A stretch of 43,041 bases of DNA from a phage. Position 1 is the first letter of the stretch, and the number at the start of each line of letters is the position of its first letter. The notes beneath the pieces were generated by a model. It was given only the letters and a program-made list of their open reading frames with translations. It did not search any database and was not told where the DNA came from. Of the stretch, positions 13,653 to 25,629 are shown piece after piece. The stretch lies in NCBI GenBank assembly GCA_026180655.1, contig GCA_026180655.1_4341.1, one strand, 5' to 3'. A program made the position numbers and the translations under genes.

Positions 13653-14708
13653 TTAACCTTGAGACCCTACACCAGTTACCAGGAAGGCAATCGGTACGTG
13701 CTTACGGTCAACAACGCGGTTCCAGTTGGAGGCGTTTGCCAGGTCCTGCCAGGAAGCGGAACGCGCTACAGTCTCGGTGCCGTTGCCGGTGATTACCGCG
13801 CTGGTGAAGCTGTATCCCAGCGGGTGCAGCAACCATGTCTTACGGGTCCAGAGGGTTTCAACGCCACCACCGTTACCGCGAGACGCTTCGCGCTCGTATT
13901 CCAGCGGGTTAGACGGATTTCCTTCGCCATAACCGATAGCGCCGTTGCCGAAGATGATGGAGATGAACTTGCGGCTGCCGCCGGAGCCGACTACGGTCAT
14001 GCTGTCGTCAACAATCACACGGTAGCCCTGGTAGGTGGCGAACAAGGTGTCGTTGTCGGCGTCTTTGATGAAGTCGATAAGCTGCTGCTTACGTGCCTGC
14101 GCATAAACGAAGCTGTGCATAGCGATAGCACCCAGCACCTCTCCACCGTTGCCCATCAGCGCATCGCCCATAGTCTGGGTAGCGTCGATGAACGCACCTG
14201 CGTCGAAGCCCAGAGTAGCAGACACGTCGATAACCATGTCGTTCTGCTCGTGGTAAGCATCGGTAGCAGCTACGTTGTCGTTGTACAGACCGAGCGCAGT
14301 AGCAATCAGACGGCGTTGTGCCTGGCGCTGCCAGAAGTTATCCAGACGGGACGCTACGGATTGCAGCGGGTTCTGGCTTGTCAGCTCAACCGTCAAATCC
14401 GCCTGACCGAAACCTTCGTTCAGGTACGCAACGCGGGCCATCATCTCGCCTGTCTGCACATTACGCGGGGTTGCGATGTCCTGATATACGTCGTTCGAGT
14501 AGTTAGGCTCGATAGACGTATCAATCGCTTTCCAGAAAGGGATGTTGGCGATGTTGGACGGGCCGCGAGCAATCTCGGCAGCGTACGGAGTCGGGGTCAG
14601 AATGCCGGACTGGAAGAACGCGGTTTTTTCTACCGGGTCCTCGGTCATATAAGACGCCAGGACCGGGATGTTGCCAGTTACGATATCACCGATAGTGGTA
14701 ATTGCCAT
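13653..14708 (-). CDS. Major capsid protein
   Basis: 351-aa ORF directly after the scaffold gene and before a strong terminator; size and position typical of HK97-fold capsid proteins. Confidence 0.65.
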   Translation of the reverse strand: MAITTIGDIVTGNIPVLASYMTEDPVEKTAFFQSGILTPTPYAAEIARGPSNIANIPFWKAIDTSIEPNYSNDVYQDIATPRNVQTGEMMARVAYLNEGFGQADLTVELTSQNPLQSVASRLDNFWQRQAQRRLIATALGLYNDNVAATDAYHEQNDMVIDVSATLGFDAGAFIDATQTMGDALMGNGGEVLGAIAMHSFVYAQARKQQLIDFIKDADNDTLFATYQGYRVIVDDSMTVVGSGGSRKFISIIFGNGAIGYGEGNPSNPLEYEREASRGNGGGVETLWTRKTWLLHPLGYSFTSAVITGNGTETVARSASWQDLANASNWNRVVDRKHVPIAFLVTGVGSQG

Positions 14709-14710
14709 TA

Positions 14711-15412
14711 TTATTTCCTCAGGGCTTTAAGTTGCCGTTCAAATTCGGCAGGGTTCGATTTATACAGAGCTAAACGCTCCGCTTCACTCATGTCTTTAAA
14801 CGCTGGTGCGGCCCCGCCGCCTTTGCCACCGGAAGCCCCGCCGCCGGAAGCTGCATTTGCTTTAATCAAATGCGAAAACGCTTTGTGCTCGCGCAAGTAT
14901 TTGCGGAACTGTTCTGGGTCAGTCGTGATTACGTTACCATCTGCGCCAACAAACTTAGTAACCACGTCATCGCCTTCAAACTCAGTCTTAACGAACGGTG
15001 CAAGAATGTCCACTGCTTCCGGGGTAATAAAGTCACCCGCGAAAGAGCCTAACACCGCCTTACGTTCGCTGCCGAGGATGCGCTCTGCCATTTTAGAGAT
15101 GCGGCCGTCTTTCTCGGCTAACACCGGGTCATACTGGCTACGAATCGTTTTTTCGAACTCGTCCATCTTACCGGCGGCTTTTAACGCCTCCTGGTGTGCG
15201 CGCTGCCGTTCTTCTTCGGCCTCTCTTGCTTTACGAGCGGCTTCTTTCTTCTCCGCGAGCAAGGCTTCTTGATTGGCCTTAAGCCCGGCAACTTCTTTCT
15301 CAATCAGCGCCTGAACTTCTTCAGCGGTGAACATTTTCGGCGTGTCACCGCCGCCAGATTTACCTTCTGCCCCAGCTTCTTCCTGGAACGGATAACGTAA
15401 AAAACGATTCAT
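14711..15412 (-). CDS. Capsid scaffolding protein
   Basis: ATG at 15412 with AGGGGA RBS; Ala/Glu/Lys-rich coiled-coil sequence, Gly-rich tract (GGGASGGKGGG); immediately upstream of capsid gene. Confidence 0.5.
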   Translation of the reverse strand: MNRFLRYPFQEEAGAEGKSGGGDTPKMFTAEEVQALIEKEVAGLKANQEALLAEKKEAARKAREAEEERQRAHQEALKAAGKMDEFEKTIRSQYDPVLAEKDGRISKMAERILGSERKAVLGSFAGDFITPEAVDILAPFVKTEFEGDDVVTKFVGADGNVITTDPEQFRKYLREHKAFSHLIKANAASGGGASGGKGGGAAPAFKDMSEAERLALYKSNPAEFERQLKALRK

Positions 15413-15494
15413 AGTCAGTATGTCCCCTGGACGTTGGAACCCGGGCCACCCGGATTTACATGTCAAGAATAAATTATTCCAACATGCAAGGCAA

Positions 15495-15758
15495 CTATTC
15501 CAGAATATTCCTCACGTAATCCTGCAACATGAACACTTTCAGCCTCAGTTGCCGTACGCATTCGGTGTTCTGAACGTCTATGGCTAAATCCTCGTCAGCG
15601 TCGCTACTTGGCGCTGCCAGTTTGCACGGCGGCTGCATCATCGTCGTATCCGGGGATGGAATTGGCGTTGGCGATGGCACGGGACTTGAGCAGGACGCGA
15701 GCATCGTCGAAAGTGCACACGCTGCGACCAGGCGTTTTAATGTACTTAACGACTTCAC
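15495..15758 (-). CDS. Outer-membrane lipoprotein, Rz1-like o-spanin candidate
   Basis: GTG start; signal peptide with lipobox LASC (MKSLSTLKRLVAACALSTMLASC), Pro-rich mature part (SPVPSPTPIPSP); starts inside the Rz-like ORF in another frame and extends beyond it. Confidence 0.45.
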   Translation of the reverse strand: MKSLSTLKRLVAACALSTMLASCSSPVPSPTPIPSPDTTMMQPPCKLAAPSSDADEDLAIDVQNTECVRQLRLKVFMLQDYVRNILE

Positions 15759-15990
15759 GGGTAATAACCTCTGATTTCGTCTTGCCTTCGTTGTCAGCGG
15801 CTGCGGCCTTCGATTCGTCCTGCTGCTGCCGTTGTGTTTTCTTCGCTAACTCGGCCTGCGCTTTCTGCTGTTGTTGCGAAACGAGATTAGCCCGGCCTTC
15901 GTTCCAGCCGCTGCGATACTGATAAATGCCGTGTGCGTAAGCCAGGATGATGAAACATGCTCCAGCTACGACAGTTGCTTTAAGATTCAT
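15604..15990 (-). CDS. Rz-like i-spanin candidate
   Basis: N-terminal TM helix (ATVVAGACFIILAYAHGIY), Gln/Lys/Ala-rich coiled coil, C-terminal KTPGRSVCTFDDARVLL resembling T7 gp18.5-type Rz proteins; AGGAG RBS. Confidence 0.45.
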   Translation of the reverse strand: MNLKATVVAGACFIILAYAHGIYQYRSGWNEGRANLVSQQQQKAQAELAKKTQRQQQDESKAAAADNEGKTKSEVITREVVKYIKTPGRSVCTFDDARVLLKSRAIANANSIPGYDDDAAAVQTGSAK

Positions 15991-16309
15991 GTTTCTCCTT
16001 TCTCGATAAGTAAAGCCCCGCCTTAAAGCGGGGCGCTAGTCCTTATCATTTAAACACAGAAACGGCGTAATCTCAGTAAACCAGTTACTTTTTACACAAG
16101 CAATAGAGTATGGCCCTTCCTAACGCGTCAGCGTAACTACACTCATGACTTACGTCCCGCTCCGTTACCTGCCCGCGCCGCGGTCGCTTGTTCATACTTC
16201 ACAAGCTCAGGTGGAGCTTAGCATATTTTCAGTGAAAAGTCAACTATTCGAATAGTTTATTCCAACATTTACAATTTAGTGGAATAACTGGAATACATAA
16301 CCAAATAGT

Positions 16310-16345
16310 TTGCGCACCCCAATATAATAGGGTACTATTCAGTTA
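16310..16345 (+). promoter_or_regulatory. Conserved promoter-like element, class A copy 2 (TTGCGCACCCC-AATATAATAG-GGTA-CTATTCA)
   Basis: TATAAT 16323-16328; palindrome AATAG-N4-CTATT at 16326-16339; gene start 28 nt downstream. Confidence 0.45.
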
Positions 16346-16372
16346 TTGAAACGAGAGATAAGGAACTTAAAG

Positions 16373-16585
16373 ATGAAAGAATTAATTATCGCGGTATTGA
16401 TGACATTGGCAGTTTCACTGGTAATCGCTGCTGTGGTACGTAGCTTAGATAAACACGGGTGCGAGAACTACGGAGATATCACAGGCCGAGAGGTAATGTA
16501 TAGTTACACAACTTGTTATGTAAAAACTGATAGGGGGTTTATCCCCCGTGAAGAACTTAATTTTAGAGCAGCGACACATGAATAA
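16373..16585 (+). CDS. Small membrane-anchored protein (moron), unknown function
   Basis: ATG 16373 with AAGGA RBS; N-terminal TM helix (LIIAVLMTLAVSLVIAAVV), 4 Cys in extracytoplasmic part; own promoter-like element and terminator; opposite strand to capsid module. Confidence 0.4.
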   Translation: MKELIIAVLMTLAVSLVIAAVVRSLDKHGCENYGDITGREVMYSYTTCYVKTDRGFIPREELNFRAATHE

Positions 16586-16587
16586 AA

Positions 16588-16613
16588 CTAAGGCCCCGTA
16601 AGGGGCCTTTTAT
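16588..16613. terminator. Bidirectional rho-independent terminator
   Basis: AAGGCCCC-GTAA-GGGGCCTT hairpin with flanking T/A runs. Confidence 0.55.
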
Positions 16614-17074
16614 CATTCTGGCTTAGTGACCTTCGCCGCTTTGCTAACTGCCTCTACACCATCGGCATCGGTAACTTTAACGAAGTATTCACCGACCGCG
16701 TTAACCGTCAGAGACAAAGCCTCTTCTGGAGCGTTGACCACTTCCTTCCCGTCTTTGTACCAGGTCAGAGCATACGGCGCTTTACCCGCTTTAACTTCGA
16801 CAGTGATAGTTGCGCTGCCGTCTGCCAGTTCAGCGTCCTGCGGTTGCGCAGAGAAATACACGTCGCCAGCATCAGCCAGATACGGAATTTCATAAAGCAT
16901 ACCCGCCGCTGGCAGCGCAATACCAGTTTTATACGCAAACGGCATATCGTCTACCGGTGTGCCTAGTACACTTTCATCCTCAATAAATACCACGTTCTCG
17001 CCAGAGCCAGACACACGGGCATACTGGACTACGCGGCGCGCAGGTACATCAGTTACTTTGAAAAAGCCCATCAT
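16613..17074 (-). CDS. Ig-like domain protein, capsid-associated, putative
   Basis: 153 aa; C-terminal Ig-like segment (ATITVEVKAGKAPYALTWYKDGKEV...GEYFVKVTD); follows head morphogenesis gene. Confidence 0.35.
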   Translation of the reverse strand: MMGFFKVTDVPARRVVQYARVSGSGENVVFIEDESVLGTPVDDMPFAYKTGIALPAAGMLYEIPYLADAGDVYFSAQPQDAELADGSATITVEVKAGKAPYALTWYKDGKEVVNAPEEALSLTVNAVGEYFVKVTDADGVEAVSKAAKVTKPE

Positions 17075-18150
17075 TATTCCCCTTTCAGATAATCAGCAAC
17101 ACGTTTATCGAGTTCCGCCATCTCTCTAATAGTCAGCGGACTCCCGAAACCATCTACAGATATTACGCGAAACTCTCCCGGCGATATACCGCTGTTGCGG
17201 AAAATCTTACCGCGAACAGGGCCGAGCGCTTCATCCACAAACCATGCCGGTTGTTGTTTCAGGAACTCGTAATAGGTGGTGTCTGCGCTTACCTGGGTAC
17301 CGCCGTCAGCGCCCTTAGCCGCGCGTTTCTCCCCTTTATCGAGGAAGTCGAACTCTGAACTGATTACCGGGGCCGTGCACGACCGACAATTCGGATGGGC
17401 AGGGGGCATAGGCCCTTTACCAATTTCCCATGCCATTCCGTCTCTGGCTCTGCAAATCGTACTGGTACGGCTGTCCAGCGTTGACACCCATTCGTATTTC
17501 TCGATGATGTCGTCGTTCTGACGGTACGTCTCGTTGCGGGCTTCGTTGGATACATGAGACAGCGCGGTGCGGATTACAGTAGCTGCGTTACGCTCAGAGA
17601 TGTCGGCCAGGCCGCCAGCGCCAACAACATTCTTAACAATCTGCCGTGTTGTCTGGCCTTGTACGAACCCCATCTTAACGCCCGTTACAAGACGGGCGAC
17701 TTCGGTTTCACCCCAGCCATCCATCAGCTTAGTGAAATCAACTGGCTTGTCACTTAACGCCAGTGGTTGAAACACGGCGGCAGACCACACCTGCTCAGCT
17801 GTCGGGGTAACAAATTCAGCGTTGACGTTAGCCGTGAGTGTTTTCACATTCCACTCGGCTTCATACGCAGCCAGTTCCTTAAGGTCTTCTGTCAGCTTCG
17901 TTTGCCAGTCGCCCGTAAGCCCTGTCAGTGCTTCTTCCAGGTCGCGTAACAGTTTATTCAGCCGCGCGGTGCTTCGCCCGTCGTCACCGAATAACAGCAC
18001 CTGCCGTTTGATTTCGTCCCGCATTTCCTGAAGAAACGGCGCAAGGTCTTTCACCTCACCGGATGCGGTGCGTTGCAGCCATATCTGGTGGCTGATTAGG
18101 GATGTAAGTAAGCTCATAGATAAACCCTGTGGTGCTAAAGTTAATAGCAT
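17074..18150 (-). CDS. Head morphogenesis / minor capsid protein (SPP1 gp7 / Mu F-like), putative
   Basis: 358-aa ORF directly downstream of the portal gene, the conserved position of this family. Confidence 0.5.
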   Translation of the reverse strand: MLLTLAPQGLSMSLLTSLISHQIWLQRTASGEVKDLAPFLQEMRDEIKRQVLLFGDDGRSTARLNKLLRDLEEALTGLTGDWQTKLTEDLKELAAYEAEWNVKTLTANVNAEFVTPTAEQVWSAAVFQPLALSDKPVDFTKLMDGWGETEVARLVTGVKMGFVQGQTTRQIVKNVVGAGGLADISERNAATVIRTALSHVSNEARNETYRQNDDIIEKYEWVSTLDSRTSTICRARDGMAWEIGKGPMPPAHPNCRSCTAPVISSEFDFLDKGEKRAAKGADGGTQVSADTTYYEFLKQQPAWFVDEALGPVRGKIFRNSGISPGEFRVISVDGFGSPLTIREMAELDKRVADYLKGE

Positions 18151-23905: not shown

Positions 23906-23938
23906 AAAAAAAAAATCCCGGCTGGGTCAGGGCCGGGA
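23906..23938 (-). terminator. Rho-independent terminator after lysis cassette
   Basis: TCCCGGC-N8-GCCGGGA hairpin (23916-23938) followed on the minus strand by a T10 run (A10 at 23906-23915 on plus). Confidence 0.65.
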
Positions 23939-24003: not shown

Positions 24004-24096
24004 TCAACCTTTGCGAAACGTATCAATAGCACCCCAGAAAGCACCAACTACAGCACCGGCACCGATAGACAATAGAATGAAGTCAATCTCTGTCAT
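24004..24096 (-). CDS. 30-aa single-TM peptide coupled to endolysin gene
   Basis: ATG 24096 overlaps endolysin TGA (ATGA); MTEIDFILLSIGAGAVVGAFWGAIDTFRKG; too short for ORF track. Confidence 0.3.
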   Translation of the reverse strand: MTEIDFILLSIGAGAVVGAFWGAIDTFRKG

Positions 24097-24578
24097 TTAA
24101 CAGCCCTCCCAATAGCCTCCGCCTCTTGCCACGGTTTACCGTTGAACAGCGCCAGACGACCCGCAGTACGGCGACGCAGGCCGAGTAGTGGTTTGCCGTT
24201 CTGGTTGATGAACAGCGCCAGCTTAGCCCGCAGTGTCGCAATATCACCAGAACGAAGCGCCTTACCTGTACCTGTAGTAGCCGCAATCACGCCCGCACCC
24301 GCGTTATACACCAGGTCGCACACAGCGTCGAACTGCGCCTGTGTCAACGAATGGTGTGCTGCTGCATCAACCGCAGCCACGGCCTTAGCCATATCGCGAT
24401 TAAGCAGCAGGAGGCCCTGCCCTGGCGTGATGGTCTTGCCCGGTGTTACGTCAGGCCCGTAGTGACCGTAGCCTATCGTCAGGTACTTCTCGTTCGGCGT
24501 AGCGCGATATGCGGTTCCGCGGAATCCCTCGAACGCGGCGGTAAAATGCAGTCCATTATCTGAAATATTTCGAGACAC
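24093..24578 (-). CDS. Endolysin, phage lysozyme (GH24-like muramidase)
   Basis: Likely GTG start at 24578 with GGAGGA RBS; lysozyme signature FEGFRGTAYRATPNEKYLTIGYGHYG; follows two holin-like genes. Confidence 0.7.
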   Translation of the reverse strand: MSRNISDNGLHFTAAFEGFRGTAYRATPNEKYLTIGYGHYGPDVTPGKTITPGQGLLLLNRDMAKAVAAVDAAAHHSLTQAQFDAVCDLVYNAGAGVIAATTGTGKALRSGDIATLRAKLALFINQNGKPLLGLRRRTAGRLALFNGKPWQEAEAIGRAVK

Positions 24579-24828
24579 GCTTATATCCTCCGTATGACAG
24601 CCACGCCTGGCGAATCTGACGCAGCGCAACTAATGTGATTAACGTCTCGGGCAGAGTCGGCGACATGCTGCCATGTAACAGGTGGATGCATCCGGCAGCG
24701 CAGACGATAGCGGTAAGGATATAGAGCACCCGTCCAAATAGCCCGTCGTCAACGCTGGGATGATATACATTAAACAGCGACGTGCCTCCGATTGCCAGCA
24801 TACCGCCGAACCAGAATAACTCATTCAT
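24556..24828 (-). CDS. Holin/antiholin-like membrane protein (2 TM)
   Basis: 90 aa, two hydrophobic helices, basic C-terminus; GAGGAGG RBS; between holin and endolysin. Confidence 0.45.
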   Translation of the reverse strand: MNELFWFGGMLAIGGTSLFNVYHPSVDDGLFGRVLYILTAIVCAAGCIHLLHGSMSPTLPETLITLVALRQIRQAWLSYGGYKRVSKYFR

Positions 24829-25129
24829 CTGGGCCTCCTCGACGTGCGATGTATTCCCCGGCGACGATACCGGAGAGACGGGAATAGATAGGCATCCAGA
24901 GAATAGCGATAATGAATCCGAGGCCAGCTATCTCGCGCTCCCCAGTAATGCCAAACCATTGAGCCGCAAGAGGTGCCCCAAATACGGCGCAGGTGAAGCC
25001 AGTTGCGATAAAGCAGAAGCCGTCGATGGGGCCAGAAATAACGGACTTATGTTGTCGTAGTCCGATTACCCCTCCGGCTAGTGCGGCGGCGAGAAGCCAG
25101 CCTGTCACTGTTTCAGTAAATTTATCCAA
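24821..25129 (-). CDS. Holin (3 TM), putative
   Basis: 102 aa with three hydrophobic helices and charged C-terminus; TTG start with GGAGG RBS; first gene of lysis cassette. Confidence 0.5.
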   Translation of the reverse strand: MDKFTETVTGWLLAAALAGGVIGLRQHKSVISGPIDGFCFIATGFTCAVFGAPLAAQWFGITGEREIAGLGFIIAILWMPIYSRLSGIVAGEYIARRGGPDE

Positions 25130-25188: not shown

Positions 25189-25629
25189 TTATCCTAATAG
25201 TTGTTTGGTAATAATCTTGCCGCCTGTGTTAGTGTCGAACTTCGAGGCAACGGCCACACCACCGTGTGCCGAATACCCGCATCCCATAGCCGCCAGCGCA
25301 TAAGGAGAACCGGAGCCTACTGCGGCAAAGCTATCAGCAATCGGAATAACTGAACTAAGGGCACAATCCCACGATTTATAAAAAGCGACTTTATACACCT
25401 TTTCTGTGTCTTTCACGAACACCAGGGCTTCGAAATCGAAGTCGTAGTGCTGCGCCCGAAGAATACCCGGGAAATCGATAAGCATAGCCCCTACCCCCGC
25501 GTCGCCAGCTACACCGATTACATAAGTGTCATTCTCATATATCTTTGTGTCTGTGTTGTAACAGTTACTCCCGCACACAACACGGGTGTCACACGCCATT
25601 GTCTTTCCATCAAACGTGATAGTAGTCAT
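25189..25629 (-). CDS. HslV/proteasome beta-like N-terminal-nucleophile peptidase
   Basis: Starts MTTI (Thr directly after Met as in HslV MTTIV), VIGVAGDAGVG and AVGSGSPYALAAMG matching HslV VIAGFAGGTADA and IGSGGPYAQAAA; ATGA coupling to upstream gene. Confidence 0.5.
   Translation of the reverse strand: MTTITFDGKTMACDTRVVCGSNCYNTDTKIYENDTYVIGVAGDAGVGAMLIDFPGILRAQHYDFDFEALVFVKDTEKVYKVAFYKSWDCALSSVIPIADSFAAVGSGSPYALAAMGCGYSAHGGVAVASKFDTNTGGKIITKQLLG

Follow-up and report, generated by a model that had tools for sequence, protein, structure and literature searches.

The two overlapping genes at positions 15,495 to 15,990 of the window (the whole stretch of 43,041 nt that was analysed) are, with a probability of about 0.92, a two-component spanin of a Kagunavirus coliphage, of the Jersey overlapped family. 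Their predicted spanin function rests on membrane and lipoprotein signals, gene architecture and family assignment. The original prediction of an Rz/Rz1-like spanin pair is supported by the topology signals, by profile matches, by curated annotation in relatives and by the fit to the Jersey family. Together with the holins and the endolysin, the pair confirms a complete three-step lysis system in the phage of the window, with the spanins encoded apart from the other two components. Both the spanin gene family and its position apart from other lysis genes have already been published, and the finding is correct but ordinary.

Gene structure and membrane signals of the spanin pair

The two genes, their ribosome-binding sites and the stretch that they share are arranged as follows.

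15604..15990, minus strand: i-spanin gene, ATG start, 128 aa, with a predicted N-terminal transmembrane anchor, a predicted helical periplasmic domain and Cys92
15995..15999, minus strand: i-spanin ribosome-binding site AGGAG, 4 nt upstream of the start and conserved in relatives
15495..15758, minus strand: o-spanin gene, GTG start, 87-aa precursor, +1 frame relative to the i-spanin
15768..15771, minus strand: o-spanin ribosome-binding site GAGG, 9 nt upstream of the start and inside the i-spanin coding sequence; a ribosome-binding site is annotated equivalently in phage Sciku
15604..15758, minus strand: dual-coding overlap of 155 nt between the 3' end of the i-spanin gene and the 5' end of the o-spanin gene

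The i-spanin ORF was expected to carry an N-terminal transmembrane anchor, and its sole strongly hydrophobic stretch is found at residues ~5-23 (Kyte-Doolittle, 15-residue windows starting at residues 1-9, up to 2.2). The Gln/Lys/Ala-rich segment that had also been proposed follows this stretch, and a single-sequence AF2 model places a helix over residues 3-84, with pLDDT of 75-87 to about residue 60. A second helix is modelled at residues 94-107; from residue 83 on, however, pLDDT stays under 50 in this single-sequence model, in which the last 45 residues are without a confident fold. In Jersey-family i-spanins, the periplasmic domain has been described as a pair of helices connected by a linker for which beta strands are predicted (Kongari et al. 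2018, PMC6139136). A single periplasmic Cys, C92, is located within KTPGRSVCTFDDARVLL. In two-component systems, the i-spanin is a small protein whose only transmembrane domain is N-terminal and whose remainder is periplasmic, and the 128-aa protein has this predicted topology.

The o-spanin gene starts 232 nt into the i-spanin gene and extends 109 nt beyond its stop, a layout of the 'overlapped' architecture and not of the embedded one. Its coordinates, the +1 frame and the extent of the overlap agree with the earlier reading, in which a GTG start is found within the i-spanin gene but in another frame, and the lipobox LASC and Pro-rich mature region proposed for its product are both present. 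The putative signal peptide, MKSLSTLKR-LVAACALSTMLA, combines a basic N-terminal part with a hydrophobic core and the lipobox LAS/C23. With a candidate signal peptidase II Cys and Ser-Ser, not Asp, at residues +2/+3, the product is a predicted lipoprotein, and it is predicted to be targeted to the outer membrane because the sorting rule finds Ser rather than Asp at +2. The mature part of 65 aa contains 9 Pro as well as Cys45 and Cys67, and its conserved, helix-like C-terminal segment is encoded beyond the i-spanin stop.

Other general features of two-component spanins are also found in the pair. The o-spanin gene of such systems is embedded in, overlaps or adjoins its partner, and here it overlaps. 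Periplasmic Cys residues suited to intermolecular disulfides, a rule given in PMC6139136, are found in the i-spanin (C92) and in the o-spanin (C45 and C67), and they are conserved in relatives. The unimolecular type represented by T1 gp11, in which a lipobox and a C-terminal transmembrane domain are combined in one protein, is not what is encoded, because the signal peptide contains the only hydrophobic window of the o-spanin and two separate proteins are present.

Family assignment and selection on the o-spanin frame

In a nucleotide search, the 900 bases around the spanin locus match 329 phage records, the best at 95-96% identity over their full length, and the top matches are nearly all to Kagunavirus phages (subfamily Guernseyvirinae) of Escherichia. 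To judge from these matches, the window is from a Kagunavirus (Guernseyvirinae) coliphage. Many of the matching GenBank records label both ORFs 'putative spanin', 'Rz-like spanin' or 'i-spanin / o-spanin', and the window allele is 93-98% identical at the amino-acid level to many database entries. A spanin-specific profile search, which had been proposed as a check, returned strong matches for both proteins: for the i-spanin the match is to phrog_2536, 'Rz-like spanin', over the full length (E 4.7e-56), and for the o-spanin to phrog_5672 (E 3.8e-30) and phrog_1267 (E 6.1e-18). In the curated genome of phage Sciku, an i-spanin/o-spanin pair of identical length and geometry is annotated by similarity to the 'overlapping' K1G spanins. 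The i-spanin is 64% identical to that of phage Jersey over 128 aa (tblastn, E 2e-35), and the o-spanin can be aligned with Jersey-type sequences.

Phages K1G, K1H, K1ind1-3, Jersey, SETP3, HK578, SSL-2009a and others were placed by Kongari et al. (2018) in one 'Jersey' overlapped two-component spanin family; the Jersey pair has a 155-bp overlap, o-spanin Cys45 and Cys67 are constant, and rare members are almost separated in arrangement (PMC6139136). The window pair shares with this family its sequence family, its PHROGs, the 155-nt overlap and o-spanin Cys45/Cys67, and it occupies the same genomic place, after the head-morphogenesis/Hoc-like genes and before the scaffold gene. No substantive difference was found. 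By these sequence features the pair is a member of the described Jersey family, and the window carries another Kagunavirus allele.

It could be argued that only the 128-aa protein is functional and that the 87-aa GTG ORF exists as a side effect of coding in the other frame. Many GenBank records, among them several relatives, do omit the o-spanin or annotate only a 47-aa ATG-started fragment without signal peptide, and inside the overlap it is the i-spanin frame that shapes the variation (40 distinct gap-free sequences). The omissions and truncations are, however, attributable to the GTG start, and comparison of the window with 48 IMG/VR loci related to it and with several relatives in GenBank makes this reading scarcely credible. 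The +1-frame ORF is open in 47/47 distinct o-frame sequences (window included; 53 sources), all of which keep the lipobox Cys (at precursor residues 17-23) and both later Cys, and these features persist even in relatives with an i-spanin of 45-64% identity. The lipobox Cys is kept despite differing neighbours (LASC, LSAC, LSGC, LNGC, MTGC and ITGC), the motifs PPCK and EC.RQLRLKV are likewise retained, and GTG and ATG alternate at one start position. That start is fixed by a stop codon two codons upstream of the GTG in most Kagunaviruses and by GTG or ATG at the same position in Jerseyviruses. Past the i-spanin stop, in the 106 nt that belong to the o-spanin only, diversity is 0.088, 0.034 and 0.250 at o-frame codon positions 1, 2 and 3 (40 distinct gap-free sequences), a periodicity that, as a pattern of sequence variation, is the signature of a translated and selected frame. 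A locus with only 14 nt of overlap (L040), of the almost-separated kind, still has the full lipoprotein. The pattern inside the overlap fits the loose sequence needs of a signal peptide and a Pro-rich linker, and the N-terminal part of the o-spanin is, as judged from this pattern, only loosely constrained there. For a functional pair of i-spanin and o-spanin, the practical consequence is that the o-spanin should be annotated by a curated 87-aa model.

The original prediction also likened the C-terminal region of the i-spanin to T7 gp18.5-type Rz, and this part did not hold: BLASTP gives E 7.2 over 14 residues, which is not significant. No BLASTP alignment was obtained between the window i-spanin and lambda Rz, and the Pfam models PF03245, PF06085 and PF17531 gave no match to the window proteins at E<=1; the same models recognised the T7 and lambda proteins used as positive controls, with gp18.5 and lambda Rz both matching PF03245. 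Homology to T7 gp18.5 or lambda Rz/Rz1 was rejected, as BLASTP and Pfam were negative with working positive controls, and the resemblance to gp18.5 is best described as functional analogy, not homology. The NCBIfam model NF038368 (P2_Rz1, P2 LysC) scored 14 bits against a cutoff of 27, which is sub-threshold.

The pair would thus act in the manner of Rz/Rz1, although it is of another sequence family. Lambda Rz/Rz1 has the same inferred mechanism and topology, and the summed periplasmic length is similar by our arithmetic (~105 + 65 aa in the window, ~129 + 40 aa in lambda), whereas lambda Rz1 is fully embedded, is located in the S-R-Rz cassette and has no sequence homology to the window pair; the window o-spanin is longer than Rz1, with two extra Cys and a conserved C-terminal segment. 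In P2 LysB/LysC, the overlapped prototype, the o-spanin gene likewise starts inside the i-spanin gene in the other frame and runs beyond its stop, but there is no significant sequence similarity to the window pair. P2 lysB/lysC adjoin the holin and endolysin genes. The T7 pair gp18.5/gp18.7 has the embedded architecture and, unlike the window proteins, belongs to PF03245 and PF17531. The T4 o-spanin resembles that of the window in being relatively long, with a predicted C-terminal helix and a need for disulfides, but T4 PseT.3/PseT.2 are separated, non-overlapping genes of a different sequence family.

Spanins among the head genes and a lysis cassette elsewhere

On the minus strand, the gene order is head morphogenesis, Ig/Hoc-like, spanins, scaffold and capsid.

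17074..18150, minus strand: head morphogenesis gene
16613..17074, minus strand: Ig/Hoc-like decoration protein gene
14711..15412, minus strand: scaffold gene
13653..14708, minus strand: major capsid gene

The predicted place between the head morphogenesis and scaffold genes was verified, with the Ig/Hoc-like gene also between them. The scaffold gene is directly downstream of the spanins in 53 of 54 related loci, and a holin or endolysin gene was found within the fetched flanks of the spanins in none of the 54. The same placement is found in phage Jersey, in the Klebsiella Guernseyvirinae phage VLCpiS11a and in the Dhillonvirus SSL-2009a. Separation of the spanins from the holin/endolysin cassette has been published for phages Schulenberg (PMC6763661) and fBC-Eco01 (PMC9825357). 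It is the published norm for Guernseyvirinae, with T4 and T7 as classic precedents; like those of the window, the T4 spanin genes PseT.3/PseT.2 are not near the holin (t) or endolysin (e) gene (PMC6139136). By comparison of these sequences, the arrangement is conserved across Guernseyvirinae and Dhillonvirus and is neither unusual nor new, and the spanin position among head genes is inherited across the whole subfamily.

Such a place inside the capsid module, conserved in 53/54 relatives, would also suit a pair of head-assembly or virion components, whose position would reflect their function and not lysis. No published experimental test of the Jersey spanin family (complementation, knockout or lipid labelling) was found in the literature, which leaves this reading some room. 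It is nevertheless very improbable, as a membrane anchor and a lipoprotein signal with an outer-membrane sorting residue are unexpected for capsid proteins, and both proteins match spanin profile families. Between Kagunavirus and Jerseyvirus the spanins also diverge much faster (63-66% amino-acid identity) than the scaffold and capsid proteins (88-93%). Spanins among packaging or morphogenesis genes are known elsewhere, for example T7 18.5/18.7, located between the genes for the small and large terminase subunits. Virion proteomics of Jerseyvirus T102 cannot discriminate between a virion component and a spanin, because the preparation yielded endolysin peptides as well.

With the pair read as spanins, the remaining lysis genes are found on the same strand, 8.1 kb upstream; the distance had been put at about 8.5 kb, and the claim that the pair is far from the holin and endolysin stands.

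24821..25129, minus strand: holin-like protein, 102 aa, first gene of the cassette (phrog_2359 holin, E 3.1e-29)
24556..24828, minus strand: second holin-like protein, 90 aa (phrog_2508 holin, E 1.4e-32)
24093..24578, minus strand: soluble endolysin of the lysozyme family (PF00959, E 6.5e-27; phrog_7 and phrog_33703 endolysin)
24004..24096, minus strand: 30-aa hydrophobic ORF, whose ATG overlaps the endolysin stop (ATGA)
23906..23938, minus strand: intrinsic terminator closing the cassette (stem TCCCGGC/GCCGGGA of 7 bp, 9-nt loop, T10), read from the sequence

The endolysin ORF is open up to 24629, and its GTG start at 24578 is taken from the length of annotated relatives. The cassette had been predicted to end in a terminator of its own, and the stem-loop followed by T10 at its end bears this out; an automatic terminator scan missed the site because its loop exceeds 8 nt. 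With two holins and a soluble lysozyme-type endolysin, the cassette is otherwise complete and contains no spanin.

This composition also bears on the reading of the pair as a module for envelope modification or superinfection exclusion, in which the outer-membrane lipoprotein would block a receptor (compare T5 Llp and the Cor type) with the help of an inner-membrane partner. Phage-encoded outer-membrane lipoproteins with exclusion roles exist, and the protein sequences of the pair diverge quickly between host genera. Still, this reading is given very little probability. An obligatory pairing of i-spanin and o-spanin through a +1-frame overlap is a hallmark of spanins, as are the periplasmic Cys and the C-terminal segment of interaction type, both of them conserved, and the genes are located in the late structural operon, not among early genes. 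The phage would otherwise have no outer-membrane disruption function, since the lysis cassette contains only holins and an endolysin.

The 30-aa ORF had been described as an extra transmembrane peptide carried by the cassette. The ORF is present and hydrophobic, but it is a sporadic insertion of ~90 nt, carried by only 6 phage records, and not a general cassette feature; as a cassette component that replaces the spanins, it was rejected for this reason. In most Kagunaviruses the endolysin ends ...AVKG and a stop at the insertion site and the ORF is absent; the inserted ORF ends with the same Lys-Gly-stop as the uninterrupted endolysin. One of the 6 records has a 26-aa version, with the frame kept despite many substitutions. 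The 30-aa product looks like a small accessory membrane peptide and not like a spanin replacement.

The gene structure, membrane signals, family and conserved position come from the window itself, and the steps of lysis proposed for it are modelled on lambda Rz/Rz1 and T4 PseT.3/PseT.2. By this analogy, the 128-aa i-spanin would insert in the inner membrane via its N-terminal helix, with the remainder in the periplasm. The o-spanin would be cut by signal peptidase II, lipidated at Cys23 and, given Ser rather than Asp at +2, carried to the outer membrane by Lol. The C-terminal domains of the two proteins would then bind across the periplasm, and homodimers are probably disulfide-locked through i-spanin Cys92 and o-spanin Cys45/Cys67. 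The complex would be caged, inactive, in the peptidoglycan mesh until the holins (24556-25129) trigger and the endolysin (24093-24578) degrades the wall; the freed complexes may then bring about fusion or disruption of the inner and outer membranes, completing lysis. Spanin activity would be gated by intact peptidoglycan and not by the timing of expression. With the cell wall as the gate, late expression from anywhere in the genome would suffice, so spanin genes need not adjoin those for the holin and endolysin.

A conserved non-coding leader upstream of the spanins

Upstream of the i-spanin gene, a conserved non-coding region was found.

16005..16243, minus strand: promoter-like site and ~200-nt conserved non-coding leader running into a hairpin, identified from sequence, conservation and covariation, with a putative function
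16015..16034, minus strand: G+C-rich hairpin GCCCCGC-UUUAAG-GCGGGGC followed by UUUACUUAU, terminator- or attenuator-like, from a terminator scan

The promoter-like site consists of TTGACT (16243-16238), a 17-nt spacer and TGnTAAGCT (16220-16215), and the hairpin ends ~15 nt before the i-spanin ribosome-binding site. In relatives, the hairpin is found in the compensatory variants GCCCUGC/GCAGGGC, GCCCGGC/GCCGGGC and GCCCGAC/GUCGGGC. Mean column identity over the ~240 nt before the i-spanin is 96% (29 distinct Kagunavirus sequences); this is close to the 97.6-99.6% found at codon positions 1 and 2 of the spanin genes and exceeds the 89-90% of their wobble positions. A 36-aa ORF within the leader (16085..16195), annotated as hypothetical in Sciku and Bas70, was considered as a protein gene and rejected in favour of a non-coding function: it is frameshifted, truncated or start-less in 8 of 33 relatives while the DNA is 96% conserved, and it has no counterpart ORF in Jerseyvirus despite homologous DNA.

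A hand-drawn structure of five helices is 98.3% paired within Kagunavirus, a value obtained on the same sequences from which the structure was derived, and slid controls are ~37% paired. Five pairs are changed on both sides, a number reached by 0/500 shuffles. Single-sequence folding is no more stable than that of shuffles (z = -0.99), and the structure is therefore supported by comparison only. MAFFT alignments of Kagunavirus with Jerseyvirus misplace helices P1 and P3, and pairs were therefore counted only within Kagunavirus. When the homologous Jerseyvirus element is compared by eye, whole helices are found to be replaced compensatorily: from Kagunavirus to Jerseyvirus, P1 changes from GCUUGU/ACAAGC to UACGCU/AGCGUA, P3 from GGGAC/GUCC to GGGCG/CGCCC and the terminator from GCCCCGC/GCGGGGC to GCCCGGC/GCCGGGC. 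One Cornellvirus keeps the core CGGGNC-GUAA-GNCC-UGAGU. A scan of bacterial genomes for the leader core, with a degenerate pattern too loose to be informative, gave only chance matches, in G+C-rich genomes, and an Rfam search of 15300-16700 at E<=1 gave no match to the leader, only two unrelated weak matches.

The order of a promoter, a ~200-nt leader, a terminator and then late genes is reminiscent of lambda PR'-6S RNA-tR' before S-R-Rz. When 10 unassigned ORFs were scanned with Pfam and PHROG profiles, no antiterminator of the lambda Q type was found, and the annotation of Bas70 also lists none. It is suggested, tentatively and with the odds rather against it, that the spanin pair could directly follow, as first cistron, a dedicated region of late control composed of a conserved sigma70-like promoter with GAATA/TATTC palindromes, the structured leader and the terminator hairpin. 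If so, the leader would set the expression of the spanins, and possibly of the scaffold and capsid, across Guernseyvirinae, and, were it to act as an sRNA or by attenuation or antitermination, it would represent a new phage RNA family. The leader is the only possibly new item described here, and it bears on late-gene control in a large, therapeutically used group of phages.

An exact 12-mer with GAATA/TATTC palindromes, ATGTTGGAATAA, flanks the spanin pair on either side (15474-15485 and 16257-16268), each copy just upstream of a TTGAC motif.

Divergence and annotation of the spanin genes

Across loci L002 and L037-L051, related phage loci compared with window positions 13653-18150, the spanins diverge far faster than neighbouring genes. 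Between Kagunavirus-type and Jerseyvirus-type loci, i-spanin amino acid identity is 63-66%, scaffold identity is 88% and capsid identity is 90-93%. One of these loci, L051, carries a Hoc gene and leader of Kagunavirus type together with a spanin of Jersey type, and because it mixes the two, recombination joints are placed at the spanin borders.

The o-spanin (15495-15758, -) is often omitted or shortened in public annotations, as gene callers miss its GTG start. For example, the o-spanin annotated in the relative Bas70 is only a 47-aa ATG-started fragment from which the signal peptide is missing (L059 5839-5982), and the phrog_5672 profile has just 47 positions, corresponding to o-spanin residues 41-87. 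The architecture of the pair also varies among relatives, as in the following locus:

L040, 2501-3089: spanin variant with a 118-aa i-spanin, the o-spanin start lying only 14 nt before the i-spanin stop

This nearly separated arrangement resembles the FSL_SP-031 case discussed by Kongari et al. (2018; PMC6139136).

The leader and direct repeat around the spanin pair

The surroundings of the spanin pair contain the following features:

16005-16243 (-): conserved non-coding leader, directly 5' of the i-spanin
16015-16034 (-): terminal hairpin of the leader
16085-16195 (-): 36-aa ORF inside the leader, a hypothetical protein in the annotations of the relatives Sciku and Bas70
15467-15485 and 16250-16268: copies of a 19-nt direct repeat

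Over about 200 nt, the leader shows a column identity of 96% among Kagunaviruses, and within Kagunavirus its five helices show compensatory changes. In the Jerseyvirus counterpart whole helices are replaced. The leader region includes a promoter-like TTGACT-17-TGnTAAGCT on the (-) strand, and an Rfam search of 15300-16700 (E<=1) returned no match for the leader. Possible roles for the element are those of an attenuator, of a leader for antitermination or of an sRNA. The 36-aa ORF was also considered as a gene, but this reading is disfavoured: 8 of 33 relatives carry a frameshifted or truncated copy or one that lacks its start, and Jerseyvirus has homologous DNA yet no counterpart of the ORF, so it is probably not a gene.

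Both copies of the 19-nt repeat share the exact 12-mer ATGTTGGAATAA, built of GAATA/TATTC palindromes, and each has a TTGAC(A/T) motif just downstream. One copy precedes the leader and spanins and the other precedes the scaffold gene; the two thus placed around the spanin pair are possible operators at which a regulator of the phage would act.

Further ORFs near the Hoc-like gene and the lysis cassette

Three further ORFs lie outside the spanin pair and its leader:

16346-16585 (+): 79-aa ORF, phrog_26710 (unknown function), with a hydrophobic N-terminal segment
24004-24096 (-): 30-aa hydrophobic ORF, its ATG sharing bases with the stop codon of the endolysin (ATGA)
25189-25629 (-): 146-aa ORF, directly 5' of the holins

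The 79-aa ORF, absent from Sciku, lies in the gap that separates the Hoc-like gene from the leader. The length of this gap varies among relatives, from roughly 345 to 1100 nt, and the site has the look of a hot spot for moron insertion. The ORF runs towards a hairpin at 16590-16609 that receives a terminator score on both strands.

The 146-aa ORF hits phrog_1040, a family of HslV/proteasome-like peptidases, at E 1.3e-33, and its match to Pfam Proteasome falls below the family cutoff; Bas70 has a different gene of 97 aa at this position. The 30-aa ORF is an insertion of about 90 nt and restores the Lys-Gly-stop with which the ancestral endolysin ended. This insertion was found in only six phage records, and HSE2 carries a diverged 26-aa version in which the frame is kept.
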